Shown: positions 4,297-24,686 of the stretch, one piece after another
Numbering within the stretch: position 1 is the first letter of the stretch
Layout of the letters: each line of letters opens with the position of its first letter
Source: Planctomycetota bacterium
Lineage (GTDB): Bacteria > Planctomycetota > SZUA-567 > H5-PLA8
Length of the DNA: 64,000 nt
Reading direction: 5' to 3'
Assembly: GCA_038227875.1 (NCBI GenBank)
Contig: JBBRPR010000013.1
Coordinates: forward strand, 1-64,000
The notes under the pieces: model-generated
What the model was told of the DNA's origin: nothing
The model's database searches: none
The model's input: only the letters and a program-made list of their open reading frames with translations
Translations under genes and position numbers: made by a program

Positions 4297-7227
4297 ATGA
4301 AAACGATACGAATGGGACGTTGCTTAGTCGCTCTGCTGTGCCTCTTTTATGTCGTTGGAGGCGCCTCTGTCCTCTCCTATCGTGCCGTAGCCGGTGAGGC
4401 CGCCGGAGACGATCCCGCACTGAACAAGGAAGACGCGGAGAAGAAGAAAAAGGAGAAGGAAGAGCGCGATAAGAAGGAACCGCCGTTCAAGTGCTCGGCG
4501 TGGTGCGCGTTCAAAGACATCTCTGTTCAACTCGCGGCGCCGCGCGTCGATCCCAACGCTCCACCGTCAGACCAGACGCAGCTCCAGTCCACTCAATGGG
4601 AAGGTTTCGGCCGACGCGGGCAGTGGGCGACGGTGATTGTCGAACTCTCCAACCTGACCAAGGACGTTACCTTTAAGGGGTACGTCGCGGTGAACTTGAA
4701 CGCGGTCGGCGAAAATTCGGTCGGCCAGATCCCGTACAAAACAAACTACCGCAAGGAATTTGAAGTCGGTCCCGGCGGCGGCGTGGACACGCCCAATATT
4801 CAGCGCATCCGCTTCAGTGTGCTCTGCAAGGAAGACTGGAACGAAGCCGGCGAACAGTTGCAGATTGAAATCAACGCGGGCAGCCAGTCGAAAGTGCGCG
4901 TGGTCAATCTCAAGAACCTCGACGCGACGGGCGAACCGTTTGTGGTCGTGGTTTCGGATAACGAAGGCGCGCTGCGTTACCTGACCAATCAGAAACGCAT
5001 CAATCCCGACGACGTGGACCTCGATGCCAAAGCCAAGACGCGCCAGGTGGCGTCGGTGCGCCCCGCGGACTTTCCGACGCGCTGGCACGATCTGACGCTG
5101 GCCAACCTGATTGTGTTCGAAGGCCCGCCGAACGACAAACTCTCCGACGCGCAGTTTGATGCGCTGAAGTCGTACGTCCAGGCCGGTGGACACGTGCTGC
5201 TGATGGCCGGAGAAGATCCGTCGCGCCTGAAAGGACCGTGGGAGGAGTTGGCGGGCATCACGGTCAAAGGTTCGACCACCATTCAGAGCATCGATGAGAT
5301 TCACCCGGCGTATCAAGACCCGAGCAAGACCTGGACGCTGCCGGTGATCGACGTTCAGATCAAGGACGACGCGCGCCGCAATTCGCTGGTCAAGCGCAAC
5401 CACAAGACCGGCTGCGTCGAAATGTGCCGGCGCTTTTACGGCGCCGGATCAGTCACGTTCATCCCCTTCTCGCTCAACAATCCGGCCTTGAAACTCTGGC
5501 CCGGCCGCGAAACGGTGCCGGCACAGATCATCGACCGCGGCGCGGTCTCGACGCTGTTCGGCCAGGCCAACTCCACCGACATCGAAAATTCGCGCAACCG
5601 GCCCACGGGCTATAACTGGCGCGGCAAAAGTCAGGAAGCACAAATCGAACGCACCGGCCTGGTCAATCTGCGCAACACGCTCGACAATTCGTTCGTCAAC
5701 GACACGCCCGTGCAGATGCAGAAGCTCAACACCGTCCTCTCCTTCCTGTTGCTGTACCTGCTCTGCGCGGTGCCGGGGAATTACTTCCTCTTCGGCTGGT
5801 TCCGCCGGCGCGAAGTCGCGTGGCTGGCGATTCCAGTCTGGGCGGCGAGTTTCAGCGTGATCGCCTACGCGGTCGGTTACATGGGCCAGACGGGAAAGCT
5901 GACGGTCAACGAGCTCTCCGTAATCGAGGCCGGGCCACGCGAGGACGTGGGGATTTCGCGCACGTTCTTTGGCGTCTATGCGCCGCAGCGCGACGATTAC
6001 TCCGTGGAATTCCCCACCTTTAAACGCAACGGAGCGGAGTTCGACGTACAGGCCGCGCCGGGACATCTGGTGAATTCCAGCAGCGAGACGTCGCGCGAAG
6101 ACACGCCGGCCTTGCAGATCGTCGACACGGATCAGGGGCTGCTCGTCAATAAGCTGCTGGTGCAGCAGCGTTCCACCCGCCGCCTGGAAGTGGTCCACCG
6201 CGCGAAGCTCGGCGATGGCCTGGACGTGAAGGTGAAGCCCAACGCGGCCGACGACAAGGGCTTCGACATCGAGATTGAGAACAACACCGGTTACGAGCTG
6301 CTCAACCCGGTCTTCGTTCACGAAGGCAACGCGATTGAACTCTCCGCCACGCCGCAGATGCTACCCGGGGCGAAGAACAGCTTGTTGGGCGTGGGCTCTA
6401 CCGGCGGCATCGCGTGGAAAAACAAGGCCGACGCGTTCTTCGGCAAAGCGGTGGCATTCCTGTCGGTGCGCGGCAAGCAGTCGGATAACCGCACTCAGGC
6501 GCTGAAGGAATTTCTGCGCGACCGCGTCGATCAATTCCGCAACGGCGTCGTCTGCGCGTGGATTGAAGAAAAGCCGCTGCCGGCCAATATCTACAACAGC
6601 AGACATCAGAAAATGGAGATCGGCAAGTTCGAAGGCCTGACGCTCCTGCTGGTGCCGGTGGGCATCAAGCACGGCGGGCAGTCCTCCGCGCAGTCGCTGA
6701 AGACCGGGCCGATTCCAGTCCGCTACGCGCTCAATTATATCCAAAACGGCAGCACTGCCGCGCGCTGGCAGGCGGCCAAGCCCGCGATTCCGCTGCAGCT
6801 GGCGAAGGCCAACACACCGGAGACGCAGGGCACGAACACGTCGATCGTCACGCTGCAGTTCAGCCCACCGACGAATGCCGCGGAACTTCACAACGACGGC
6901 TGCTACCTGCGCATGCACTTCAAGCTGGCCATCTCCAGCGTGGAGGATTCCGATGCACCCATCATCAAGACGCTCAGCGGCACTCTGAGCATCTCCGTGG
7001 AAGCGCGCGCGGATAACAACTCCATGGTCTGGCAGGAACTGACCAACACCATGATCACCGGTCTGCAACCGGACAAGCCCTTCAAAGCCGATAGCATTGA
7101 TATTCCGCTGGGCGATTACAAGCTGGTCAAAGACAATACCATGCGCGTGCTGATCAAGACGGATACCACGGAAGCACCCATGGCACTGGAACTCCGCAAC
7201 CTGGACATCAGAGTGGTGGAAGAGTAG
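4297..7227 (+). CDS. Large exported/membrane accessory protein of the ABC system, with a central GATase-like domain
   Basis: N-terminal signal sequence, LKSYVQAGGHVLL flavodoxin/GATase-like segment, two TM helices (FLLLYLLCAVPGNYFL, AWLAIPVWAASFS). Directly upstream of the ABC ATPase. Confidence 0.75.
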   Translation: MKTIRMGRCLVALLCLFYVVGGASVLSYRAVAGEAAGDDPALNKEDAEKKKKEKEERDKKEPPFKCSAWCAFKDISVQLAAPRVDPNAPPSDQTQLQSTQWEGFGRRGQWATVIVELSNLTKDVTFKGYVAVNLNAVGENSVGQIPYKTNYRKEFEVGPGGGVDTPNIQRIRFSVLCKEDWNEAGEQLQIEINAGSQSKVRVVNLKNLDATGEPFVVVVSDNEGALRYLTNQKRINPDDVDLDAKAKTRQVASVRPADFPTRWHDLTLANLIVFEGPPNDKLSDAQFDALKSYVQAGGHVLLMAGEDPSRLKGPWEELAGITVKGSTTIQSIDEIHPAYQDPSKTWTLPVIDVQIKDDARRNSLVKRNHKTGCVEMCRRFYGAGSVTFIPFSLNNPALKLWPGRETVPAQIIDRGAVSTLFGQANSTDIENSRNRPTGYNWRGKSQEAQIERTGLVNLRNTLDNSFVNDTPVQMQKLNTVLSFLLLYLLCAVPGNYFLFGWFRRREVAWLAIPVWAASFSVIAYAVGYMGQTGKLTVNELSVIEAGPREDVGISRTFFGVYAPQRDDYSVEFPTFKRNGAEFDVQAAPGHLVNSSSETSREDTPALQIVDTDQGLLVNKLLVQQRSTRRLEVVHRAKLGDGLDVKVKPNAADDKGFDIEIENNTGYELLNPVFVHEGNAIELSATPQMLPGAKNSLLGVGSTGGIAWKNKADAFFGKAVAFLSVRGKQSDNRTQALKEFLRDRVDQFRNGVVCAWIEEKPLPANIYNSRHQKMEIGKFEGLTLLLVPVGIKHGGQSSAQSLKTGPIPVRYALNYIQNGSTAARWQAAKPAIPLQLAKANTPETQGTNTSIVTLQFSPPTNAAELHNDGCYLRMHFKLAISSVEDSDAPIIKTLSGTLSISVEARADNNSMVWQELTNTMITGLQPDKPFKADSIDIPLGDYKLVKDNTMRVLIKTDTTEAPMALELRNLDIRVVEE

Positions 7228-7269
7228 TCGAACGTGACGGTGATGTGAACGAACGCTAAGGATAATTGC

Positions 7270-8196
<927 letters not shown>

Positions 8197-12322: not shown

Positions 12323-14167
12323 CTACCAGCGCTGTTCCACGAACGCTTCCAGCGCGTGGTAGAACGGCAGTCCCAGTTCGTAGTAGCGGCGCGCAGTGCC
12401 GGTGTTGCGGTCGTCGACGCGCTGCCAGAATTCGCGCTGGTCGGGGCCGGGGAACATCGCGCGATCTTTTTGCGACTGATGTTTGAAGATCGCTTCCTTC
12501 TTTAAGTGAAGTTCGTGTTCCGTCAGCGGCACGAGAATATCGGCCTGTTCCAGCGGCCATTCCTGCCACGCGCCGCGGTAGAGCCAGACGATCGGGCGCT
12601 TCTCCGCCGGCATGCGCAGCACGGCGGATTTGATGATCCACAGACAGACGCGGTGCGTACCGTGCGGATCGGAGAGGTCGCCGGCCACAAGGATGCGCTG
12701 CGGGTTGATCAGATTGAGCATCTCCAGCGTCTGCGCGATATCGCGTTCGCCGGGCGGATCTTTTTCGATCGCGCCGGTCTGGTAGAAGGGCAGATTCATG
12801 AAGATGCATTTTTCGCGCTTCAAGCCGACATGCATGGCGCCGCTGGTCGCTTCCGATTCGCGGATGAAGCGCTTGATGTAGCCGACTTCCGGAATGTCGA
12901 GATCGCCGGGCTTCTTCTGGCTCAGGAATGTCTCGACGCGGTCGCGCATCTTCGTGTGTTCGGAGACCGGCAGGTTGTTGGCGCCGAGGTACTTCTCGAC
13001 GAAGTCGATGTAGCGCAGCACATCGTGATCGAAAACGGCGATGTTGCCGCTGGTCTGGTAGGCGGCGTAGACGTCGTTTTTGTTCTCCACCAGTTTGCGG
13101 AAGATGCCGCCGGCGGAGATTACGTCGTCGTCGGGATGCGGACTGAAAAGGACGATGCGTTCGTTCTTCGGCAGCAGGTCGTGGTCGCGGACTTTCGCCA
13201 TCAGTTCTTTGCAGCAGGTGCGGTTGATTTCGTCGGTGTCCTGCGCGAGCGTCAGCGCGGCGAGGCCGCTTTCGATGTAGTCGTCCTGCGAGATGCGCTG
13301 AATCGGCTTTTTGGTGTGCTGCGCCAGCCAGATTACGGCACGGAGGACTTCGCGGTCCTTGCCGTCGTTGCCTTTGAAGACGTGGTTGTCCTGGATGCGC
13401 CAGGGCGTCTTGACGCGCATCAATTCAGCGGCGGAATCGACGTCCAGGTGCATCGTCGCGTTGGGGTGGCGCTGGAGCAGCGAGGCCGGGACGTCGACGG
13501 TCTCCGGTCCTTCCACCGCGCGCTGGACGATGGCGGATTTGTTTTCGCCCAGGGCCACGAGCAGGATTTCGCGCGCCGCGAGAATGGCCGCGCAGCCCAT
13601 CGTGATCGCTTCGCTCGGGACGTTCTCTTCGCCGAAGAAGTCGGCCGCCGCATCGCGCCGGGTAAAGGGATGGATGCGCACCAGCCGCGTCGGCGCCGTC
13701 GGTGGCGTGCCCGGTTCGTTGAAGCCCATGTGCCCGGTGCGGCCGATGCCCAGTAGCTGCAGATCGATGCCGCCGAGCGCCTGGATCTTCGCGTCGTATT
13801 CGGCGCAGTGCGCGGCGACTTTCTCGCGCGGCAGGTCGCCGCGGGGAATGTGGATATTCTCCGGCTTGATGTTGACGTGCCGGAAGAAATTCTTGTTCAT
13901 GAAGCGGTGGTAGCTCTGCAGCGCGTCAATCGAGATCGGGTAGTACTCGTCGAGATTGAACGTCACCACACCGGAGAGATCCAGCCCTTCACGGTGGAGC
14001 TTGATCAGCTCGCGGTAGACGCCTTTGGGCGTTGAGCCGGTCGGCAGTCCGAGGACCGCGTTGGGCTTTTTCTTTACCACTTCGGCGATGCGTTTGGCGA
14101 CGGTGACGGCCAGCGCAGTGTGATCGTCGTGGATGACCAGCGGAATCTTGGCGGGATCTACAATCAT
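12323..14167 (-). CDS. nagB: Glucosamine-6-phosphate deaminase fused to a PIG-L-like deacetylase domain
   Basis: LGLPTGSTP, TFNLDEY, GIGRTGHMGFNEPG. C-terminal domain has FSPHPDDD, DPHGTH and KHQSQ. Confidence 0.93.
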   Translation of the reverse strand: MIVDPAKIPLVIHDDHTALAVTVAKRIAEVVKKKPNAVLGLPTGSTPKGVYRELIKLHREGLDLSGVVTFNLDEYYPISIDALQSYHRFMNKNFFRHVNIKPENIHIPRGDLPREKVAAHCAEYDAKIQALGGIDLQLLGIGRTGHMGFNEPGTPPTAPTRLVRIHPFTRRDAAADFFGEENVPSEAITMGCAAILAAREILLVALGENKSAIVQRAVEGPETVDVPASLLQRHPNATMHLDVDSAAELMRVKTPWRIQDNHVFKGNDGKDREVLRAVIWLAQHTKKPIQRISQDDYIESGLAALTLAQDTDEINRTCCKELMAKVRDHDLLPKNERIVLFSPHPDDDVISAGGIFRKLVENKNDVYAAYQTSGNIAVFDHDVLRYIDFVEKYLGANNLPVSEHTKMRDRVETFLSQKKPGDLDIPEVGYIKRFIRESEATSGAMHVGLKREKCIFMNLPFYQTGAIEKDPPGERDIAQTLEMLNLINPQRILVAGDLSDPHGTHRVCLWIIKSAVLRMPAEKRPIVWLYRGAWQEWPLEQADILVPLTEHELHLKKEAIFKHQSQKDRAMFPGPDQREFWQRVDDRNTGTARRYYELGLPFYHALEAFVEQRW

Positions 14168-14394
14168 CGTGTCAGCGGTTCCAAATTGGGGGTGAGTTCA
14201 ACGTTGAAAAGTGTAGCGATTGGGCCTCATTTATAAAGTTCAGCTTTGGAGCTGATCGTGCAGCGTCGCCAGGGGCTCTGGGTCTAAAGATTCTTTCACC
14301 TCTATTAAGGAACTTGAGCCACGCCGCGCACCGGCACCGGCTGCTCCTTGTGAAATTACCTTGGCACAGCAAATGCAGAACACGTGGTATTCCT

Positions 14395-15342
14395 ATGAGG
14401 GTCAGGACCTTGAAATGCGCCATTCATGTTGATCAGCCTTGCGTTGAAGCCTGTCGCGGCTGCGGCCGGCTGATCTGCGACACGTGCGATGTTCGTTACG
14501 CGGGCAAGCACTATTGCAAGGCCTGCGTCGCGACCGTGGCGCGACCGCTCCAACGCTTCGATCCGCGGCCGCTCCCGTGGAGTTCGCGGGCGATCAATCT
14601 AGCTAGCAAGCGTTGGTACGCGCTGCTCCCGCTAGCCAGCGGGCTGCTGGTTTTGTTCACCGCGCTGGCGGCCCTGAGTGCAGCCAGCCAGTCCTGCGCC
14701 AGCCAGTTCAACTACGATTCCCCTTTCTACGGTGGAAGCAGCAGTTCATTCTCCAGCGGACTGGTCTTCTCGAAGGCCACACTCTCTGTCTGGATTCAAA
14801 TCGGCGCGGCGCTCGTGTTGCTGGGTATCTACCTGTATGTTCGGCGCTTCTCGTTGCGCTGGCTGATGACCGGCGTGATCGCCGTCGCCGCGCTGGGTGC
14901 CTATCCATTTCTGCGCATTTCGGGAAACCCGGAATTGACGGAGGTCCTGCACGTCTCCGGTCCTCGTGCCCTGACTCAAACGGACGTCGAACACCTGAAG
15001 TCCTTGCTGCAGCCGCAAGCCGCCATGAGGACGTTGCCACTGACGATGGTACGGGAACTCGAGCTGGATCGTATGAACTGCGTGCGCAGCGTTGACGTAT
15101 CCGGTGCGGGGAACGGACGAGGCATCGATTGCCACGTGGAATTCTCGCCGGATCTGAAAGACGAGCAGCGTGCCACACTCGAAGCTTTTTACCAGCAGTA
15201 CGCGGTCGAACTCCTGTGCGGAAAATCGACCAGCATTTGTGGCGCGCCGGGCCGCTCGCACTGGGCTCGCTACGCCGGGCAATGGCAGGCCAATCTCCCG
15301 CCGCAAAACGTTCCGGCCGCCGCCAGCGGCAATTCGTTCTGA
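14395..15342 (+). CDS. Hypothetical membrane protein with an N-terminal B-box-like zinc finger
   Basis: CAIH...CRGCGRLICDTC...YCKAC followed by about 3 TM segments. Start placed at MRVRTLKC. Confidence 0.6.
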   Translation: MRVRTLKCAIHVDQPCVEACRGCGRLICDTCDVRYAGKHYCKACVATVARPLQRFDPRPLPWSSRAINLASKRWYALLPLASGLLVLFTALAALSAASQSCASQFNYDSPFYGGSSSSFSSGLVFSKATLSVWIQIGAALVLLGIYLYVRRFSLRWLMTGVIAVAALGAYPFLRISGNPELTEVLHVSGPRALTQTDVEHLKSLLQPQAAMRTLPLTMVRELELDRMNCVRSVDVSGAGNGRGIDCHVEFSPDLKDEQRATLEAFYQQYAVELLCGKSTSICGAPGRSHWARYAGQWQANLPPQNVPAAASGNSF

Positions 15343-15346
15343 CGAC

Positions 15347-16717
15347 TCACTTCAGCGGCTCAAAATGCGCCGTGAAGTGGCGCAGCATCGGCGCTTGGAA
15401 CGTCAGGCGCAGGCCCTTCACCGTGTCGCGCTTCTGGTAGAGTTCCAGGATGCGCTCGGCAATGTAGTCGACATGGCTTTGCGTGTAGACGCGCCGCGGA
15501 ATCGCCAGGCGCACCAGGTCCATCGGCGCGAAGGACTCGACGCCTGCCGCGTCGCGTTTGCCGAACATCGCGCTGCCCACTTCCACGCCGCGGATGCCGC
15601 CGATCTGGTAGAGCGCGCAGACCAGCGCCTGGCCGGGGTATTGCTCGACGGGAATGTGCGGAAAGAACGCGCGTGCGTCGATGTACACGGCGTGCCCGCC
15701 GGGCGGTTCGACGAACTTCACGCCGCCACCGCGGATCTTGTTGGCGAGGTACTCGATGCAGGCGTGGCGGTACTCGAGGTAGCGTTCGTCGAGCACTTCG
15801 GTCATGCCGACGGCCAGCGCTTCCAGATCGCGCGCTGCCAGGCCGCCGTACGTGGGGAACCCTTCGGTCAAGATCAGCAGGTTGCGCGCGTGTTCGGCAA
15901 GCTTGTCATCGTTGAGCGCCAGAAAGCCGCCGATGTTCGAAAGCCCGTCCTTCTTTCCAGAGAACGTCGCGCCATCGCAGTACGAGAACATTTCGTGGGC
16001 GATCTCGCGGGGCGTCTTGTCCGCGTAACCGGGCTCGCGCATTTTGATAAACCACGCGTTCTCGGCGAAGCGGCAGGCGTCCATGAAAAATGGAATGCCG
16101 TGCTTGTGGAGCATCTGGCTGACAGCGCGGATGTTCTCCATCGAGACCGGCTGCCCGCCGCTGGTGTTGTTGGTCGCCGTGAGCATGCCCAGCGGCATGT
16201 TCTTCGCGCCGACGCGCTGGATGGCTGCTTCGAGCTTGGCGGTGTCGAGATTGCCCTTGAACGGGTGCTGCGAGGAAGGGATGCGCCCTTCGTCGATCAC
16301 CAAATCGAGCGCTTCGGCGCCGGTGTATTCGATGTTCGCGCGCGTGGTGTCGAAGTGATTGTTGTTGGGCACCACCTTCCCCGCTCCGCCGGTGAGCTGA
16401 AATAAGATGCGCTCCGCCGCGCGGCCCTGGTGCGTGGGAATGATGTGTTTGAATCCAGTGAGTTCCCGGACGACCTTCTCGAATTTATAGAAACTGCGGC
16501 TGCCGGCGTAGCTTTCGTCGGCGACCATCATCGCGCCCCATTGCGCGGCGGACATGGCCGACGTGCCGCTGTCGGTGAGGAGGTCGATGAGAATATCTTC
16601 GGCGTGGATCAGGAACGGATTGAAGTGCGCCGCTTTCAGGATTTCCGTGCGCTGCTCGGGTGTGGTGAAGCCGAGGGGTTCGACCATTTTGATTTTGAAG
16701 GGTTCGATGATGGTCAT
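15347..16717 (-). CDS. tnaA: Tryptophanase (PLP beta-eliminating lyase)
   Basis: EPFKIKMVE, IDLLTDSGT, THQGRAAE, SGKKDG (PLP Lys). GFPTYGGL and LRHFTA fit tryptophanase better than tyrosine phenol-lyase. Confidence 0.88.
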   Translation of the reverse strand: MTIIEPFKIKMVEPLGFTTPEQRTEILKAAHFNPFLIHAEDILIDLLTDSGTSAMSAAQWGAMMVADESYAGSRSFYKFEKVVRELTGFKHIIPTHQGRAAERILFQLTGGAGKVVPNNNHFDTTRANIEYTGAEALDLVIDEGRIPSSQHPFKGNLDTAKLEAAIQRVGAKNMPLGMLTATNNTSGGQPVSMENIRAVSQMLHKHGIPFFMDACRFAENAWFIKMREPGYADKTPREIAHEMFSYCDGATFSGKKDGLSNIGGFLALNDDKLAEHARNLLILTEGFPTYGGLAARDLEALAVGMTEVLDERYLEYRHACIEYLANKIRGGGVKFVEPPGGHAVYIDARAFFPHIPVEQYPGQALVCALYQIGGIRGVEVGSAMFGKRDAAGVESFAPMDLVRLAIPRRVYTQSHVDYIAERILELYQKRDTVKGLRLTFQAPMLRHFTAHFEPLK

Positions 16718-16922
16718 GGGGCGGCTCTTAGCTCCTGGCTCTTGGCACTTGGTACGCAAGCGGACGGGTGAGTTTAGCGGGAAGGTGGCTGCGGGTGAAA
16801 GGTAGAGATGCGTTTTTAATCTCGCGCAAAGACGCAATGGCGCAAAGAACGGCAAGGAATTTCGATGTTGTCCAGTTACCGGGCGCAGCTTCGCGCCCCC
16901 GAGTAGCCGTACCGACTTGCTT

Positions 16923-16950
16923 GACCTTTGTGCCTTTGGGCACAAAGGTC
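16923..16950. repeat. 12-bp-stem hairpin
   Basis: GACCTTTGTGCC-TTTG-GGCACAAAGGTC. Confidence 0.85.
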
Positions 16951-16967
16951 TGGTCGGCGCTGCCGCA

Positions 16968-17050
16968 TGTAACATTTGGGTCGATTGCACGGGGTGAAGT
17001 ACAACAACTTTCTCATAGGCAAATGTTACAGAATGTTACAAAATGTTACA
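16968..17050. promoter_or_regulatory. Three tandem 10-bp repeats RAATGTTACA plus one inverted copy; putative protein-binding array
   Basis: AAATGTTACA-GAATGTTACA-AAATGTTACA at 17021-17050 and TGTAACATTT at 16968-16977. Confidence 0.6.
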
Positions 17051-17423
17051 GTTTTCAGGGTTTTGGTTATTTCCCGTACAACAGCGGTGTGGTACTTGAG
17101 CGCAATGTGTTCTGACTGGCGGAGTTGCACTGCGTGAGCGGGACGCGGTCGTCGTCGGCGCTCGGAGGCCCAAGTTTTCATGGGTCAAGGAGTGCCGACG
17201 TCCGGGCAGGCCTTGGGCTCGGCGGTACTGATGGGGCTCTTCGTTTGTCACAGAACAAGGACTATCTCAGCATTAAACAAGATACCGCGTATTAGGGGAA
17301 TGTCAAGTAGTTCTGTGTATTTAATTATTGAAAGATTGGTTTATGGTGTATAGTTGAATCGATTTTTGAAGGATCGTTATTACGACTTTGAATCACATTG
17401 CGTGAGGAGGTTTCAATTTTTTA

Positions 17424-17453
17424 TTGACATGTTTCATCCATTTACGGCATAAT
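17424..17453 (+). promoter_or_regulatory. Putative sigma-70 promoter of the AT-rich islet
   Basis: TTGACA-N18-CATAAT, 25 bp upstream of ATG 17479. Confidence 0.55.
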
Positions 17454-17478
17454 ATATCATCTCTCTCTAGCGTGAAGC

Positions 17479-17781
17479 ATGCTTGATCTCCAATCCATCC
17501 TAACTGCTGTGCCGCCAAAAGATCGAACTGATCAATACAAGATTCTCGCCGCGCTATATACGCTTAACGCGCATGTGACACCAACTACCACAAGTGAAGT
17601 GACAAGGTTGTTGGCCCTAAAACTGACGCGAAAGGAACTGCCCACGAATGTTTCCAGCAGTCTTAGAAAGTATGTAGCGTTTGTAGAAGCTACGCAGAAA
17701 AGTCCATATAAATGGACTCTGACGTTCAAAGGCTTGGAGTTTCTACGGCAAGTTAGCGGCTGGCGCTCTCGACGCCCGTGA
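17479..17781 (+). CDS. Winged-helix-like protein; probably the N-terminal part of a frameshifted wHTH-PNP gene
   Basis: Helical pattern ending in wing-like KWTLTFKGLEFL. A -1 shift at about 17760 joins it to the PNP frame. Confidence 0.65.
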   Translation: MLDLQSILTAVPPKDRTDQYKILAALYTLNAHVTPTTTSEVTRLLALKLTRKELPTNVSSSLRKYVAFVEATQKSPYKWTLTFKGLEFLRQVSGWRSRRP

Positions 17782-18590
17782 AGCAGTCGGACTATGGAAG
17801 TGATGTAGGAATCATTTGCGCTCTACAACATCCAGAGCAGGAGGCGTTTATTCGAGCAGTTGGGATAGATCGGTGGAGCCAAACGGGAGAAACACGCTTC
17901 ACCCATATTTATCAAAAAGCAAAACTTTCTCTTCCTTCAAACAAGACAATTGAAATTGTCAGCACCACAGCAACTTCAATGGGATTGACAGCAGCTGCGA
18001 TTGCAACCACTCAATTAATCCTTCAGTTTCGTCCTCGCCTTGTGATTATGGTCGGAATTGCCGCGGGTACAAGAAGCGCCGATAAACAATTCGGCGACGT
18101 TTTGGTAGCCGATCCCAGCATCGACTACAACACTGGAAAAGTGATTCAATCTAACGGCATCAGAGAATTTCAGCCAGATCCATATCCAATTGGACTCAAT
18201 CCAAAATTGAGAAACATACTTCACAAGTATCGCGCCGAACATCCTATTTTTAATTCGATTCGAACGAAATGGAATTCTCCTATTCCATTTCTTAATCGAC
18301 TACATGTTGGGCCTCTAGGAGCGGCCGATCAAGTAATTGACGATCCAACTCGTATTATTGAAATTCAAAGGAGTTGGCGAAAGCTAATTGGCGTCGAAAT
18401 GGAAACCTATGGGGTGTATCGCGCGTGCAATGAGGCTCCCGAACCAAAACCTCGTTTTGTTTCATTCAAGTCTGTTTGCGATTTTGCAGCTGAGAAGACA
18501 GACTCGTGGCAACCATACGCTGCATTCATGGCGGCAGAATTTACCGTGGAGTTCCTCAAGAACGATTGGGAGGCATTATGTCTAGCATAG
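17778..18590 (+). CDS. PNP/MTA-SAH nucleosidase-superfamily domain (PNP_UDP_1), defence-effector type
   Basis: GIICALxxxE, MGLTAAA, IMVGIAAG, GDVLVAD..DY..GK, GVEMETYG, KSVCDFA..K...WQPYAA. Confidence 0.9.
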   Translation: MKQSDYGSDVGIICALQHPEQEAFIRAVGIDRWSQTGETRFTHIYQKAKLSLPSNKTIEIVSTTATSMGLTAAAIATTQLILQFRPRLVIMVGIAAGTRSADKQFGDVLVADPSIDYNTGKVIQSNGIREFQPDPYPIGLNPKLRNILHKYRAEHPIFNSIRTKWNSPIPFLNRLHVGPLGAADQVIDDPTRIIEIQRSWRKLIGVEMETYGVYRACNEAPEPKPRFVSFKSVCDFAAEKTDSWQPYAAFMAAEFTVEFLKNDWEALCLA

Positions 18591-19225
18591 AAAAGGGTAA
18601 CCCTACAGAAAACTCTAATGAACCCGATCCGGAGATTTTAGCCATTACGGCAGTGTATTCAGCGCTTAGAAATCTTAAGCCCGAGGCACAGTCGCGTGTG
18701 TTAAAGTTTGTTGTTGATAAGATTGGCGCCGACAAGTCGATGTTATCTGCAGTTGCGGATCAGTCACCAAGAACTGTTGAGTTAGAACCGGGTCCGGTAC
18801 CAGTCAGTACTCATTCCGAGATAAGCACAAGTATTAGTCCAATTGCTCAAAAATGGATTAAAAGAAATAATCTTTTAATAGATGATTTATCAAAAATATT
18901 TAGCGTTGGTGGCGAAGAAATTGACCTGATCGCTAAAGCTATTCCAGGAACATCAATTCGAAGTCGTATGTTCAATGTATTTCTTCTAAAATGCATCGCT
19001 GCTTATTTGAGTAGTGGTAATTCCCGTGCTCCTCACCAGCAATTAAAAGAGACATGCCTTCACTATAACGCCTACGATGAAAGTAACTTCGCTGCCTATA
19101 TAAAGCACTTCAGTTCTGAATTTTCTGGGTCTAAAGATGTCGGATACCAACTGACTCAGCGGGGACTTTCTTCTGCAGCAGATCTCATTAGGTCGATGGT
19201 TTCGACCGACTCATCAAAAGACTGA
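18578..19225 (+). CDS. Hypothetical protein with a C-terminal winged-helix-like segment
   Basis: GGAGG RBS then ATG 18578, overlapping the PNP stop. Motif YDESNF...GYQLTQRGL. Confidence 0.75.
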   Translation: MSSIEKGNPTENSNEPDPEILAITAVYSALRNLKPEAQSRVLKFVVDKIGADKSMLSAVADQSPRTVELEPGPVPVSTHSEISTSISPIAQKWIKRNNLLIDDLSKIFSVGGEEIDLIAKAIPGTSIRSRMFNVFLLKCIAAYLSSGNSRAPHQQLKETCLHYNAYDESNFAAYIKHFSSEFSGSKDVGYQLTQRGLSSAADLIRSMVSTDSSKD

Positions 19226-19511
19226 GGTACCATTTCTGGCTCTTTCACCGTGTCACGCGGTGATTGCTCACACCACTATAAAACAGCAACGTGATCCAAA
19301 CGATCGGCTGGCGGCGCGATGAAGTGGACGCCAGCCAGAATCGTGCTGATTCACCCAGATCGACGACGCGAGTTTACGGGAGGCGAGTTCGGACGCTTCC
19401 GCCGGCTGGCTCCCATCCGATTCAATCTGCGGCGAGGAATTCGCAATAAAATCGTCTGGAATTCGTGCCTAATGCTATGCTGTACGCGCCTCTTTTCAGC
19501 AAAGGGCGCCC

Positions 19512-19737
19512 ATGTCCAACGGAACGACCCACCACGGACCGATGCTACGCCGCGTGCTTCAGCACCGCACGGCGCTGTATGCCTATATCTTTGCCTGCGT
19601 GCGCAAGCACAGCGAGGCGGATGATATTTTGCAGGATGTTTTTGTCGCGGCGGTCGAAAGTATCGATCAGATCAAAGATGAAGCCGGCGTGCTCCCCTGG
19701 CTGCGCGAGATTGCACGGCGGCGCATTCTTGCGCACG
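19512..19737 (+). pseudogene. Truncated ECF sigma factor (region 2 only)
   Basis: LYAYIFACVR...ADDILQDVFV...PWLREIARRRIL, then similarity is lost and region 4 is absent. Confidence 0.75.
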
Positions 19738-19983
19738 GAGTGGCGGAACGGCGGACTATCGCAATACTTCGGCAATCACGGCATCGCTCAATGGAAAGCG
19801 TTATCAAAAGTCGCTGCGCCTAAATTGAAGTCCTTCCCCGCGTTTGCTAAGGCAGTCAACCAAGCTATTGGAAGATCGAAGGATCCGTATGAGGCCACCC
19901 TAAATTCGTCGCAGGCGCTCGACTCCCTCTATTTTAAAACTCAAACTCGGCTCGTGAGAGAATTAAAGAAGGCGATAAGTTAA
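19738..19983 (+). pseudogene. C-terminal fragment of a DMP19/DUF4375-like protein
   Basis: EWRNGGLSQYFGN resembles the DMP19 NGGxxQYFxN motif. Different frame from the sigma fragment, with no start of its own. Confidence 0.5.
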
Positions 19984-20380
19984 CCCCGTCCTTCGCCGGT
20001 TGCATTGGGGAATTTGCGACGTCTGCAGCGAGCTCTGCGAACAAGCGTCGTCGAACCTGGTGATACGTCTCGCCGCGAAAGCCTTCCTGTATTCGAATCA
20101 GTCCGGTCGGCACGTGCCTTGACGCTGACGAATGTGCCGCGATCACATCGTCCGACACATAACTCGATTTCATCATTTGAAAACGGATAGACGACGCGCT
20201 GCCGGTTTCAAACGTTCCAGTCACTGCCGCCGGGTTTTGGTCATACGCACACCTCCCTTTCAGGCACTTTACCCCTTATTAGCATCCATCATTAGCATCC
20301 ATCGCAAATTTCGCCCGGTTTAGCCTCACGTCCGTTCCGTCTTTTCGTGCGTTCCGAAGGTGCCATTTTGAGTGCAAAAA

Positions 20381-20416
20381 GTTGATTAATTAACATTTGA
20401 CTGTTGATTAAATAAG
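20381..20416. promoter_or_regulatory. Putative operator pair upstream of the GntR gene
   Basis: Near-palindrome GTTGATTAATTAAC at 20381 and a related copy GTTGATTAAATAAG at 20403, 22-bp period. Confidence 0.5.
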
Positions 20417-20432
20417 CATAAAAACGACCTCA

Positions 20433-21659
20433 ATGAAAAACAACAACCCCTCCGATCACGGCGTGCGCAAATACCCGAAGGTTCGGGACTCCATTCAGAA
20501 GCTGATTGAGTCCGGGCAGTACCCGCCGGGCGGGCGGTTGCCGACGGAGAGCGCGCTGGCCCGGAAGCTGAAGGTCAATCGCATGACCGTCAGCCGCGCG
20601 TTCAATGACCTCTCGCAGCTCGGGCTGGTCGTGCAGCGGCGTGGCAGCGGAACGTTCGTGGCCGACAACACCTGTCCGCCGTTGATTCGGGGCCGGCATC
20701 TGCGCATTGGGCTTTTGTGGTTTACTTCCGTGGTTGAAGGCGACGCGGAAGCCGCGTTTCTGTGGCAGATCGCACGCGGTGTGCTGAATGAATTTCATCT
20801 CGAAAACGCCCTGCCGGCGTTAACGGCGAAGAGCGAGAAGGATGTGACACGCGCGATCTGGACGCGACCGGAACTGGGCGTGACGGTGGAGTGCGTCGGC
20901 GAGGCGTGGGCCAGCAAAGAGCGTCATCCGCCCTTGCGCGAGATTCGTACCGGCGGTTTTGACGGCCTGATGACGCTGGGCATCGTCGAGCAGGATTGGC
21001 TGAGCGAGGTGCTGGGGCTGGGGACTCCGACGGTCATTGTCGACTACCCCAACGATGTGTTTCTAAAGAGCGCCGATCATGTCTTCGTCGATCCGATGCC
21101 GGCATATCGCGCGGCGGTCCGGCACTATGTCCAATCCGGGTTCAAGCGCATTCACTTCGTCGGTTCGTTGCGCTGGAATCCCGCGTCCAACGACAACGTG
21201 GACTTTGCCGAATGGCTCAAGACGCGCACGACCCAGGGCCTCGATCCCGACAGTTTCCTGCGGCTGTGCGCGTACAAGCAGGAAATGGAGTCCATGAAGT
21301 TGCCCGTACCGGATCAATGGATTCATACCACCACATACAACGCCAAAGACATTGCGCAGCTGGTTGACTCGCTGGCCCGCTTGCCCGACGACCAGCGCCC
21401 CGAGGCGGTTGTTTGCCATTCGGTGGGCCTGGCCGAGAGCATCATTGCTGGGTTTGCGGCGCGGGGGCTGCGCGTGGAAGGCGCAGGAGCGACGTTTATG
21501 CCGTATGCCGGCGCGGCACTTCCCGTGCGCGCGGACGCCACGATGCTTGGCGCGTCGGCTGCGGCGCTGCTGCTGTCGCGCTTGCAGCGCGTTAACCGGC
21601 CCACGCTGAACGTCGGCGTACCGATGGAATTTGCCGCACCCGCAGTCCTCTCAAAATAA
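20433..21659 (+). CDS. GntR-family regulator with a LacI/periplasmic-binding-like effector domain
   Basis: GRLPTESALARKLKVNRMTVSRA...GLVVQRRGSGTFV. C-terminal GFKRIHFVG and PEAVVC. Confidence 0.9.
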   Translation: MKNNNPSDHGVRKYPKVRDSIQKLIESGQYPPGGRLPTESALARKLKVNRMTVSRAFNDLSQLGLVVQRRGSGTFVADNTCPPLIRGRHLRIGLLWFTSVVEGDAEAAFLWQIARGVLNEFHLENALPALTAKSEKDVTRAIWTRPELGVTVECVGEAWASKERHPPLREIRTGGFDGLMTLGIVEQDWLSEVLGLGTPTVIVDYPNDVFLKSADHVFVDPMPAYRAAVRHYVQSGFKRIHFVGSLRWNPASNDNVDFAEWLKTRTTQGLDPDSFLRLCAYKQEMESMKLPVPDQWIHTTTYNAKDIAQLVDSLARLPDDQRPEAVVCHSVGLAESIIAGFAARGLRVEGAGATFMPYAGAALPVRADATMLGASAAALLLSRLQRVNRPTLNVGVPMEFAAPAVLSK

Positions 21660-21692
21660 TTCTGCCGTCGTGAAAGTCACAGGAGATTGACC

Positions 21693-24686
21693 ATGAAAGT
21701 GACGGGACTACCGATCGTGGCGGTGCTTATCCTGATCGCGGGCCACGTCGCACGTGCCAGCGACCTGGACGAACTGAAAATCAAACGGAAGGAAGTTTTT
21801 GCTTTTACGCAGGAGCCCCGGGTCGTGCGGCAGGGTCGCGACTTTGAGATCGAGTTTGCCGTTCAGGATTACTGCGATGCCACCGTTGTGGTCGAAGGTC
21901 CGGACAAGAAAATCATCCGCCATCTGGCGGCCGGAGTACTGGGCCAGAATGCGCCGGAGCCCTTCCAGCGGGGCACGCTGAAGCAGTCGCTGCTTTGGGA
22001 TGGCAAGAACGATCGCCAGGAATACGTCGAGCACGTCGACGACTGCGCAATTCGCGTGTCACTGGGACTGAAGGCGGAATTCGAGCGCACACTTTTCTGG
22101 GAACCCAAAAAGCGTATTGGAGCCGGACTGGGTTCAGGCATTGGGACCTCGTTCAACACGCCTGCGCAATTGCTGGCCGCGGCGCCGGAGGGTGTTTACG
22201 TTTTCGAAGGACACGGCGTGGACCAGCTGAAACTTTTTGGCCACGACGGAAAATACCTGCGCACAATCTATCCATTTCCCTCCGACAAATTGAGCGCGGT
22301 GCAAGGCCTGAACATGGTCGATTTTCCGCAGGACGACAAGAAGCTGCCGTACAAGTGGGGCTGTCAACGTTCGACACTTTTAAGCTCCGGGTCCACGGCT
22401 CAGTATGGCGTCTACATCCAGGCTCAATGGGGCACGGGGTCGGAACTGCTGGCCGTCCGCGGCTCGCGTCTCGCGCTGGGTCTTACCAAATTGAATCGGC
22501 TATCGACGGACGGTTCTTCAGGCGGATTGAATCTGACCGGTCCAAAAATCAGTTACCTGGCGAACATGCTCAACTCGAATCGTCCGAAGAACGATGTGCT
22601 TGATGTGGGCCCGCTGGTGGGCGCATTCAGCCCCGATGGAAAATACCTCTACCTGACCGGATACATCTGGCGCGATGGCGTCCCCGGCCGGTCGCTCTGC
22701 AGGGATGCGTTCAATTGCGTGACGAAACTGGAATACGACAAGGACACGATCCCGCAACTTTTCCTGGGCAGCGACAAGCAGGACGAAACGGGCTCGGGCG
22801 ATAAGCAATTGAAAAGCCCGGCGTCGGTCGCGTGCGACAAGCAGGGGCGAGTTTACGTCGCCGATTATGGAAATAATCGAATTCAGGTCGCCAGCCCGGA
22901 CGGCCAGATACTGAAAAGCATTCCCGTTTCTCATCCCGTAAAAGTGTGCGTCGATCCGGTATCGGATGAAATTCATGTCTTTTCGTGGCTACTGCAAAAC
23001 GACAGCCTGTTGAAAGGCGATGCCAACAGCGCCATCCCGGCGACGTACACGCGACTGGGTACGGTGGACCATCCGGGGAAGACGGCGCAGTGCGCGCTGC
23101 CCTTGCCGGGGTATCAGGATCGCGTGTCGCGAATGGCGAAGTGGGGTGGCCTGGAGTATCGCGTGGAGGTGGACTTCTGGTCGAATCCTCCCACCGTTTG
23201 GATTGCGGCGAACAGCGGCGGCACCATCGAGAGTTTTACCGGCGGAGTGGATAACTCCGTCGGCGCCGAAGCGGCCACGGGCGGCTGGGCCGAGAAGAAC
23301 GTTCGTGTGTACAAACCTGCCGACGGAAAACTGGAGTGCCTGCACGACTTTGGCAGCGATGTGGCCAAGTCGATCGTGCGCTCGCGGCCACCGTTCTTCC
23401 AGCGTCAGCGGCTGTATGTCAGTCCAAAGACGGGGAAGTTGTACGTGGGAGAAGGCGATCCCACGCGCTGGTTCAAGGCGTTTCAGCAGTTGGTCGAAAT
23501 TGATCCAGCGAATGGCCAATGCCGGCTGGTGGATCTCCCGCTCAGCGCGGAGGACATGGCGTTCGACAACGACGGCCTGATGTACTTGCGCACCAACACT
23601 GCCATCGCGCGTTTCGATCCGGAAACCTGGCGCGAAGTACCGTTTGATTACGGCGAGGAATTCAAGGACTTCACCTTTTCGGATCAGAAGAACGGTCCGC
23701 GCATCGACTTGATGAGCGGGCTGCCACTGGGCGCGGAGACGTACGTCTCGCAATGGCACAACGGCGGGCTCAGTGTCTCTCCCAAAGGTTATATCGTGGT
23801 TCCGTCCATTGTGGACAAGGCGGGCTTTCGCACCTGGACGGGCAAAGATGAAAAGAGTGCGAATGCAGCCGCACCGGCTGGCGGCGGATACGAACCGCCG
23901 CTCTATCCCGGGCGCGCCCGCTTTGGAGAAGTTCATGTTTACGACAAGCATGGAAAACGCATCTACCAGGACGCGGTGCCGGGGATCCGGTACATGCTCG
24001 GAATCGCGATGGATAGTCACGACGATATATACGTGCTGACGCATGAAACGCGCATGTACAACGGCGCGCCGTACTTCAATGTGAAAACGGGAACGCTTCT
24101 GAAATTGCCGCCGTGTCTGGGAAAATTCATGACTGACAAACCGGGCGGCGTGAATCCGCCGGTCCCGCTGACCTCGACGAGCACACCCAAGCGACCTCCA
24201 GAGCTGATGAAAGGCGACGAAAAGTTCTGGGTGGACGGCGTGAAGTGGTTGTTTGGAGGCGTCGGTTTTGCCGGCAAGGGCGATCCGGTTTCAGGCGGAG
24301 GATGTTCCTGCTGGAACGCGCGTTTTGCACTCGATTATTTCGGCCGCTCGTTCGTTCCGGAGATCGATCATTACTCCGTCGCCGTGCTCGACAGCGCCGG
24401 AAACCTGATGATGCGCATCGGAAAGTACGGTAATGCCGATGACGGCAAGCCGCTGCAACCCGACGGTGGATCTCCCGTCGCCCATTCCATTGGTGGCGAC
24501 GAGGTGGCGCTGTTCCACGCGGCGTATCTGGCGGTGGATTCGGATAACCGGCTCTTTATCGCCGACGCCGGCAACAGCCGGATTTTGTCGGTGAAATTAG
24601 TCTACAACACGAACAGCCGCACCCGGATCAGCGACATCACGAGCAAGAATCTGGAGGCCCGAGCGCCGTTGCGGACGGAGCACTAA
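21693..24686 (+). CDS. Large secreted protein with a FlgD-Ig-like N-terminus and NHL/beta-propeller repeats
   Basis: Signal peptide, IIRHL...WDGKND, PASVACDKQGRVYVADYGNNRIQV, LFIADAGNSRI. GGAG RBS before ATG 21693. Confidence 0.8.
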   Translation: MKVTGLPIVAVLILIAGHVARASDLDELKIKRKEVFAFTQEPRVVRQGRDFEIEFAVQDYCDATVVVEGPDKKIIRHLAAGVLGQNAPEPFQRGTLKQSLLWDGKNDRQEYVEHVDDCAIRVSLGLKAEFERTLFWEPKKRIGAGLGSGIGTSFNTPAQLLAAAPEGVYVFEGHGVDQLKLFGHDGKYLRTIYPFPSDKLSAVQGLNMVDFPQDDKKLPYKWGCQRSTLLSSGSTAQYGVYIQAQWGTGSELLAVRGSRLALGLTKLNRLSTDGSSGGLNLTGPKISYLANMLNSNRPKNDVLDVGPLVGAFSPDGKYLYLTGYIWRDGVPGRSLCRDAFNCVTKLEYDKDTIPQLFLGSDKQDETGSGDKQLKSPASVACDKQGRVYVADYGNNRIQVASPDGQILKSIPVSHPVKVCVDPVSDEIHVFSWLLQNDSLLKGDANSAIPATYTRLGTVDHPGKTAQCALPLPGYQDRVSRMAKWGGLEYRVEVDFWSNPPTVWIAANSGGTIESFTGGVDNSVGAEAATGGWAEKNVRVYKPADGKLECLHDFGSDVAKSIVRSRPPFFQRQRLYVSPKTGKLYVGEGDPTRWFKAFQQLVEIDPANGQCRLVDLPLSAEDMAFDNDGLMYLRTNTAIARFDPETWREVPFDYGEEFKDFTFSDQKNGPRIDLMSGLPLGAETYVSQWHNGGLSVSPKGYIVVPSIVDKAGFRTWTGKDEKSANAAAPAGGGYEPPLYPGRARFGEVHVYDKHGKRIYQDAVPGIRYMLGIAMDSHDDIYVLTHETRMYNGAPYFNVKTGTLLKLPPCLGKFMTDKPGGVNPPVPLTSTSTPKRPPELMKGDEKFWVDGVKWLFGGVGFAGKGDPVSGGGCSCWNARFALDYFGRSFVPEIDHYSVAVLDSAGNLMMRIGKYGNADDGKPLQPDGGSPVAHSIGGDEVALFHAAYLAVDSDNRLFIADAGNSRILSVKLVYNTNSRTRISDITSKNLEARAPLRTEH

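Follow-up and report, generated by a model that had tools for sequence, protein, structure and literature searches.

A two-gene cassette of a winged helix-PNP fusion and a coupled partner protein: a candidate ATP-nucleosidase module, decayed in a Planctomycetota genome

ATP-nucleosidase domains of the Cap17/DtcC type have recently been recognised as an immune effector common to bacteria and eukaryotes, and the sensors known to date to act upstream of them are of the cyclic-nucleotide, phosphorelay, NLR, Argonaute and reverse-transcriptase kinds. According to the available text of the preprint by Rousset et al. (10.1101/2023.01.24.525353), the isolated PNP domains of Cap17 and DtcC, which belong to the cyclic oligonucleotide-based antiphage signalling system (CBASS) and to Detocs, respectively, are toxic and cleave ATP and dATP, and mutation of the catalytic Asp abolishes defence. 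Here we describe a two-gene cassette on a 64,000-nucleotide stretch of DNA from a Planctomycetota bacterium (positions 1 to 64,000 of contig JBBRPR010000013.1, assembly GCA_038227875.1; hereafter the window), in which a predicted PNP domain of this type is fused to a winged helix-like domain and is accompanied by a small partner protein. We consider it somewhat probable that the cassette is a so far undescribed module of toxin-antitoxin-like or abortive-infection type whose effector is an ATP nucleosidase.

The features of the cassette all lie on the plus strand. Its first gene, the fusion gene, is present in the window as two open reading frames (ORFs). The 5′ half (17479-17781) encodes the winged helix-like N-domain and ends after 100 amino acids (aa) at a premature TGA; the 3′ half (17760-18590) encodes the PNP domain of DtcC type and corresponds to the listed ORF 17778-18590 (270 aa), which has a GTG start and no visible ribosome-binding site upstream of this GTG. 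The two ORFs correspond to one gene of about 373 aa in all relatives. Thus, a search with the PNP ORF returned 798 proteins at E≤1e-3, and among the 120 matches listed the identities were 65-72% and the lengths mostly 371-378 aa, the window's own ORF excepted. Nine relatives align end to end over both ORFs, and the 100-aa ORF matches residues 1-94 of 373-aa relatives with 38-62% identity. The second gene, the partner gene (18578-19225), encodes 215 aa counted from its ATG. The PNP ORF extends 13 nt into the partner gene, and the partner ATG is downstream of the sequence GGGAGG (18568-18573), which reads as a ribosome-binding-like site, and in relatives the fusion and partner genes are also tightly spaced. 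An earlier reading of the same DNA, made by a model from the letters and listed ORFs (hereafter the sequence-only reading), had described the 215-aa protein as translationally coupled, and the 13-nt overlap together with the GGGAGG bears this out. The TTGACA promoter that it had assigned to the cassette is likewise present as a sigma-70-type promoter-like site, TTGACA-18 nt-CATAAT, at 17424-17453. This site matches 11 of 12 consensus positions and is assigned by that match alone; region-wide, five promoter-like sites were found versus 4.1 expected from shuffled sequences, i.e. there is no excess. No common upstream motif or operator was obvious by eye across the upstream regions of 31 relatives.

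The fusion and partner genes are strictly linked. A pattern scan covering one genome per species (185,579 species) yielded 45 loci, which is a lower bound. The partner gene lies directly downstream of the fusion gene in 43 of them, and the other two end at a contig edge. When metagenome loci were anchored on the partner, the fusion gene was found directly upstream in 75 of 80 loci, the other five starting 84 nt or less from a contig end. The pair is therefore present at every locus that has sequence to judge (43/43 genome loci for the downstream DNA and 75/75 metagenome loci for the upstream DNA), and so the two genes do co-occur elsewhere, a point on which the sequence-only reading had made its proposal depend. 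No other neighbour is conserved: when 528 ORFs were clustered, no family was present in more than two of the 45 loci. By the titles of their records, the hosts fall into six phyla and belong to the Acidobacteriota, Verrucomicrobiota, Nitrospirota, Planctomycetota, Bacteroidota and Alpha- and Betaproteobacteria (51-79% identity). Within the window's phylum, the only one of 301 sampled genomes found to have the partner family was that of the window itself; among 351 Acidobacteriota it was the centre genome alone, and among 401 Pseudomonadota two genomes had the family. Judged from gene content and distribution, the cassette is best described as a horizontally mobile, self-contained two-gene module that is patchy across phyla.

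The kind of PNP domain carried by the fusion was determined from profile scores, not from trees. The 270-aa ORF matches PF01048 in Pfam at 7e-16. Its match to the PADLOC profile PDC-M60C is at 1.6e-65 (219.6 bits, profile positions 144-400 of 407), and that of a relative, P0002, is at 4.3e-62; the matches begin at profile position 143-144. We equate PDC-M60C with DtcC, a receiver followed by a PNP domain, because PDC-M60 stands for three-gene Detocs systems, as far as the rows of supplement file 5 of PMC11811056 go. PF01048 proteins are present in 14 of 14 control genomes, and PDC-M60C at E≤1e-20 in none of these 14. With a PNP profile of the cassette family, DtcC-like proteins with clear receiver N-termini (L149-L152) score 52-146 bits and other large PNP-bearing proteins 50-110 bits, and the three other PF01048 proteins of the window's genome give 11.5 bits, 2.1 bits and nothing. 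Solved structures provide distant MTAN matches only (phmmer ~1e-7, Foldseek ~1e-6). The Glu of a VEMET motif and the Asp of a CDFA motif align with MTAN active-site motifs (the SD motif in the case of the Asp, which by this MTAN alignment is a candidate for the catalytic Asp, D353 in DtcC and D472 in Cap17); both residues are invariant in 50/50 relatives and are kept in the window copy. In two quick PNP trees the family formed one clade, with unstable deep nodes. Together, the profile comparisons place the PNP domain nearer to the immune Cap17/DtcC type than to housekeeping PNPs. The description of the domain as intact-looking holds for its PF01048 match, but not for the effector gene, which is split by a frameshift.

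The N-domain has no match in PADLOC or Pfam at E≤1, and the 100-aa ORF has none in NCBIfam either. In the structure model of P0002, residues 1-100 form three successive helices, a beta hairpin and a further helix (predicted local distance difference test score, pLDDT, of 79-94), a pattern predicted to be that of a winged helix; in its PNP stretches the model is poor, with pLDDT below 50 at 200-240 and 282-307. The ESM Atlas returned 'hypothetical protein' clusters only. The partner has no match in Pfam, NCBIfam or PADLOC. Its model (pLDDT 85.3) contains a helical hairpin at residues 18-49 followed by a low-confidence, disordered linker (pLDDT 51-52) whose length varies among relatives. In a VIA search, residues 121-215 resembled MarR/PadR/F93 winged helices over 80-85 residues with root-mean-square deviations of 2.4-3.4 and Z values of 8-9.6, a range rated middling by VIA itself. 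Foldseek with the partner model gave nothing at E≤1e-3, and the N-terminal hairpin is covered by no fold match. These models (pLDDT 79-94 for the N-domain and Z 8-9.6 for the partner) support the two winged helix-turn-helix-like domains that the sequence-only reading had proposed. The two proteins differ in charge: median isoelectric points (pI) are 9.0 for the fusion (n=50) versus 6.0 for the partner (n=23). The N-domain has a median pI of 9.8 (50 relatives), and within the partner the pI is 5.0 for the hairpin, 4.3 for the linker and 8.9 for the C-domain. The similar wing motifs reported for the two proteins, WTLTFKGL and YQLTQRGL, are both present and are co-aligned by hhalign, but the alignment has an E value of 0.087 and a probability of 0.66%, and homology of the two winged helices was rejected as evidence.

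How does the cassette compare with described systems? It resembles Detocs in that the PNP domain of DtcC is the best match of its PNP domain anywhere, in that an N-terminal regulatory domain precedes a C-terminal PNP domain as in DtcC, and, as far as the available descriptions of Detocs go, in the presence of a second small protein of the fold class of the regulatory domain (the partner here, the stand-alone receiver DtcB there). It differs in having two genes instead of three. The cassette and the 10 ORFs between 12323 and 24686 include no DtcA kinase, and the 45 loci have no conserved third gene. The N-domain of the effector is a modelled winged helix with no receiver match; the partner has no receiver match either, so that it is not a DtcB and belongs to an unrelated, unnamed family. 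With Cap17 the cassette shares a PNP domain of immune type (the PADLOC model for CBASS PN-superfamily effectors matches that of the window at 1.1e-18) fused to a sensing or regulatory domain. It differs from the members of the Cap17 clade (CBASS, Avs/NLR, pAgo and DRT8) in that no CD-NTase, SAVED/SLOG, STAND, Argonaute or reverse transcriptase is found nearby. In agreement with the sequence-only reading, which had noted the absence of a cyclase, a histidine kinase, a receiver domain and a STAND NTPase, no kinase, cyclase, receiver or STAND was detected in the 10 flanking and islet ORFs (12323-24686) or in the cassette proteins. Since the defining sensor parts were tested for and are absent, the cassette is neither Detocs nor CBASS.

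Toxin-antitoxin modules of type II with the toxin gene first are those of the higBA and mqsRA kind. The cassette resembles type II modules in consisting of two small overlapping genes that encode a basic enzyme and an acidic partner, the latter with a DNA-binding fold (according to the model) and a disordered segment. It differs from them in that no known toxin-antitoxin family in Pfam, PADLOC or NCBIfam matches its proteins. The pair does not fall under any named system: PADLOC systems are matched by the PNP part alone, and the partner matches none. Among the PNP architectures named in the available text of the Rousset preprint (10.1101/2023.01.24.525353) there is no winged-helix fusion with such a partner. 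A description of the pair's architecture was not found in the literature, though the supplementary tables of that preprint might list one.

The copy of the cassette in the window is decayed. Three-frame translation and alignment to relatives place a frameshift at 17758-17760 on the plus strand, where a Gly codon lacks its third base; the protein sequence reads ...LRQVSG in one frame and continues as LALSTP... in the next. The winged helix-like ORF and the PNP domain seen in the sequence-only reading are hence both present, but they belong to a single gene that the frameshift has cut in two, as its mention of a 'repaired' operon had implied. An identical frameshift allele is present in a contig of run X1 (depth 12.6), from which the assembly may derive. 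Run X3, a second sample of the same study, has it as well, in a 270-nt contig that covers 17593-17862. An assembly artefact is unlikely because the same allele is found in the X1 contig and in this second sample. The effector of the window has mismatches at 17 of 186 conserved columns, compared with a median of 3 and a maximum of 13 for 50 relatives, the columns having been defined from these same 50 relatives, which biases the comparison in their favour; it is the most divergent member at conserved positions. The partner, with one mismatch in 48 conserved columns, looks intact. The effector is probably silent or dead in this copy, broken by the deletion of one base, and the window copy is a combination of an effector pseudogene and a preserved partner gene. 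Disruption was observed in 5 of 41 complete loci. At L035, from an alphaproteobacterial metagenome-assembled genome (MAG), an IS4/5-type transposase pair (DDE_Tnp_1 and DUF4096; L035:5108-5946) lies within the part that codes for the N-domain. The remaining four (L002, L008, L041 and L042) have frameshifts, and all of them come from one MAG series.

We infer the substrate, the toxicity, the role of the partner and the trigger as follows. In its intact form the first gene encodes 373 aa, with a basic regulatory winged helix followed by a PNP domain of the DtcC/Cap17 kind, that is, of the kind that cleaves adenine from ATP and dATP. The product of the second gene, which is translationally coupled to the first, is acidic; its helical hairpin is joined through a disordered linker to a winged helix of its own. 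The nucleosidase would be the growth-arresting effector, and the partner would restrain it in an antitoxin-like manner, either by direct neutralisation or by repression of the operon. A trigger, which may be phage infection or loss of a labile partner, would free or assemble the effector; ATP and dATP would then drop and growth would stop, resulting in abortive infection or addiction. Compared with DtcC and Cap17, the winged helix stands where these have a receiver or a ligand-binding domain.

Several observations weigh against the view that the cassette is a toxin-antitoxin-like or abortive-infection module. No relative of the fusion profile was found in IMG/VR, and plasmids contained no match for two partner proteins. 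A separate IMG/VR scan with three distant partner proteins, from which the window's own partner family was left out, gave none either. At 41 loci, the ORFs up to the second on either side, 150 in all, were analysed with Pfam and proved to be mainly housekeeping genes, including those for DnaB, the alpha and delta subunits of DNA polymerase III, GroEL, FtsK, UvrA, UvrD, ribonucleotide reductase and GltX. Only ~7 of 41 loci have, within two ORFs, a gene that is clearly of toxin-antitoxin, restriction, Abi or mobile type, and these few flanks speak for the module: PemK at L006, integrases at L007 and L040, XhoI restriction-modification at L015, HipA at L026, an insertion sequence (IS) element at L035, and DUF4062 with AbiJ_NTD4 at L037. 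At E≤1e-8, PADLOC matched 7 of 148 neighbours in the first 14 loci, and these were mostly generic ABC-ATPase-like. The argument from defence islands is weak because the flanks are mostly housekeeping genes and the PADLOC neighbours are few and mostly ABC-ATPase-like, and the search for the pair in defence islands that the sequence-only reading had suggested did not speak for its proposal. In a redone PNP tree the family did not group with the DtcC-like rows, the deep nodes of this tree being weak and prone to long-branch effects. The four frameshifts from one MAG series may be sequencing errors. Finally, effector swapping was not seen among the close relatives of the partner in the 80 metagenome loci. 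The two-component nucleotide-depletion defence or toxin-antitoxin system put forward by the sequence-only reading is supported in part, by the strict pairing, the DtcC-type PNP domain and the lack of a named system; the weak defence-island context, the lack of copies on the IMG/VR contigs and plasmids searched, the absence of significant homology between the two winged helices and the broken state of the window copy lend it no support.

Part of the same evidence can be accommodated if the cassette plays no part against phages and is instead a selfish toxin-antitoxin (addiction) module that ensures its own maintenance on the chromosome. A two-gene unit without conserved neighbours, seated between housekeeping genes, would fit this idea, as would the basic/acidic pair with its disordered segment and the frequent decay, including the IS insertion at L035. 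It is opposed by the absence of the cassette from the plasmids searched, by the position of the isolate locus L037 between DUF4062 and AbiJ_NTD4 genes, and by the PNP clade that the cassette resembles, which according to the available text of the preprint (10.1101/2023.01.24.525353) has so far been linked to immunity; we regard it as unlikely, with a chance that is still appreciable. Alternatively, the fusion could be sensor and effector in one protein, complete by itself: its winged helix would recognise a nucleic-acid cue and make the nucleosidase assemble, and the partner would then be only a transcription factor that silences the operon, like CapW/BrxR. The N-domain does occupy the place of the DtcC receiver or the Cap17 ligand-binding domain, and the C-domain of the partner is a basic winged helix of MarR/PadR type. 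However, the partner gene is downstream and translationally coupled rather than divergent, no operator is visible upstream of the fusion gene in the 31 relatives, and such a role would leave the conserved acidic hairpin and the linker without a function. We give this possibility slightly less credence still.

A regulated housekeeping nucleoside-salvage enzyme of the MtnN kind beside a transcription factor has in its favour the membership of the PNP domain in PF01048, the fact that MTAN is the best solved-structure match, and the fold and Glu/Asp motifs shared with MtnN. However, scores against the MtnN equivalog models are far below the cut-offs (NF004079, 52.6 bits versus 169; TIGR01704, 35.6 bits versus 73.8), and the PDC-M60C match at 1.6e-65 likewise shows that the domain does not group with MtnN, an outcome that the sequence-only reading had named as fatal to its proposal. 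In addition, the fusion differs from MtnN in its extra N-domain and in being mobile, it occurs sporadically across phyla and within a low-GC islet, and the genome holds three other PF01048 genes. This explanation is very improbable.

Proteins related to the partner extend beyond the cassette. The window partner has 24 close homologues, and a search of 1.84 billion representatives with the partner profile gave 732 clusters (50% identity) at E≤1e-3 and 371 at E≤1e-10. Many of these partner-like proteins are ~190 aa long and share the C-domain and the N-terminal hairpin, and neither Pfam nor PADLOC matches any of them. Genomic context was recovered for two such partner-like genes only. One of them, in genome G697 (L142:740-2040), whose product matches the partner profile with an hhalign probability of 94%, precedes and is coupled to the gene for a DUF4145 protein (4.5e-7), a domain that we take to be HEPN-like. 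The other, in genome G1260 (L161:6138-7461), encodes a protein 60% identical to that of G697 and overlaps the gene for a 252-aa protein, which is matched by no Pfam model and is not similar by BLASTP to the DUF4145 protein of G697; this pair sits in an islet of 0.40-0.44 GC near a SUKH_5 gene. These two cases provide no more than a lead to effector swapping in the wider partner family. A tentative generalisation, which we consider possible and rather doubtful, is that the family marks modular two-gene conflict systems in which a partner-like protein is coupled to winged-helix-tagged effectors of varying chemistry; the winged helices would serve for docking or for sensing nucleic acid, and the switch shared by all would be the acidic partner.

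The cassette is located in a low-GC islet (17000-20400), which also holds a truncated gene for an extracytoplasmic function (ECF) sigma factor. The GC content is 0.39-0.53 across the islet and 0.60-0.64 in the flanks on both sides; for the cassette part (17000-19200) it is 0.39-0.47, which confirms the AT-rich islet that the sequence-only reading had noticed. The neighbours of the islet are genes for a NagB/PIG-L fusion, a beta-eliminating lyase, a GntR-type regulator and an NHL-repeat protein. In DNA comparisons with the genomes of relatives, the islet was unmatched except for short repeats at its left edge. An empty-site search in relatives found one genome, G001, to be syntenic only at the beta-eliminating lyase gene, and insertion boundaries were not obtained. 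Of the sigma factor, the truncated gene at the right end of the islet (19512-19823) retains just region 2 (PF04542; TIGR02989 at 7e-15, profile positions 4-86 of 158). A 172-aa ORF in a different frame (19465-19983) overlaps this gene and has a DMP19-like match below threshold (21.6 bits versus a cut-off of 25). Rfam gave nothing in 16500-20600 at E≤0.1.

The borders of the islet contain repeated sequences. A stretch of ~130-175 nt at its left edge (16923-17098) is found in at least 14 further places in the same genome with 72-90% identity; it includes a hairpin with a perfect 12-nt stem match (16923-16950) as well as AATGTTACAG-like units, three in tandem, at 17020-17051, and could be an element of the miniature inverted-repeat transposable element (MITE) or repetitive extragenic palindromic (REP) type. 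Further to the left, at ~16720-16860, stretches of 30-45 nt match dozens of places in the genomes G001-G010 with 83-97% identity, which suggests a family-wide intergenic repeat. A 13-nt direct repeat flanks the islet (17058-17070 and 20232-20244, GGGTTTTGGTTAT and GGGTTTTGGTCAT), and an inverted 12-mer pair at 17017 and 20391 brackets it likewise; these repeats may be due to chance or may be an insertion scar. The sole tRNA gene of the window, for tRNA-SeC, lies at 840-935 on the minus strand.

An intact cassette is present in a cultured isolate, Chryseosolibacter histidini PWU4 (L037:4818-8802), where it occupies about 6001-7745 and lies between the genes for the DUF4062 and AbiJ_NTD4 proteins; DUF4062 is termed an immune NADase domain in the available text of a preprint (10.64898/2026.09.04.749371). 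This copy makes the cassette testable without repair of the window copy. If the cassette is indeed a toxin-antitoxin-like or abortive-infection module, it would provide a small, tractable system to learn how an ATP-nucleosidase domain stays silent and then switches on, and its compact two-gene form would represent a new way to control an effector of this type.

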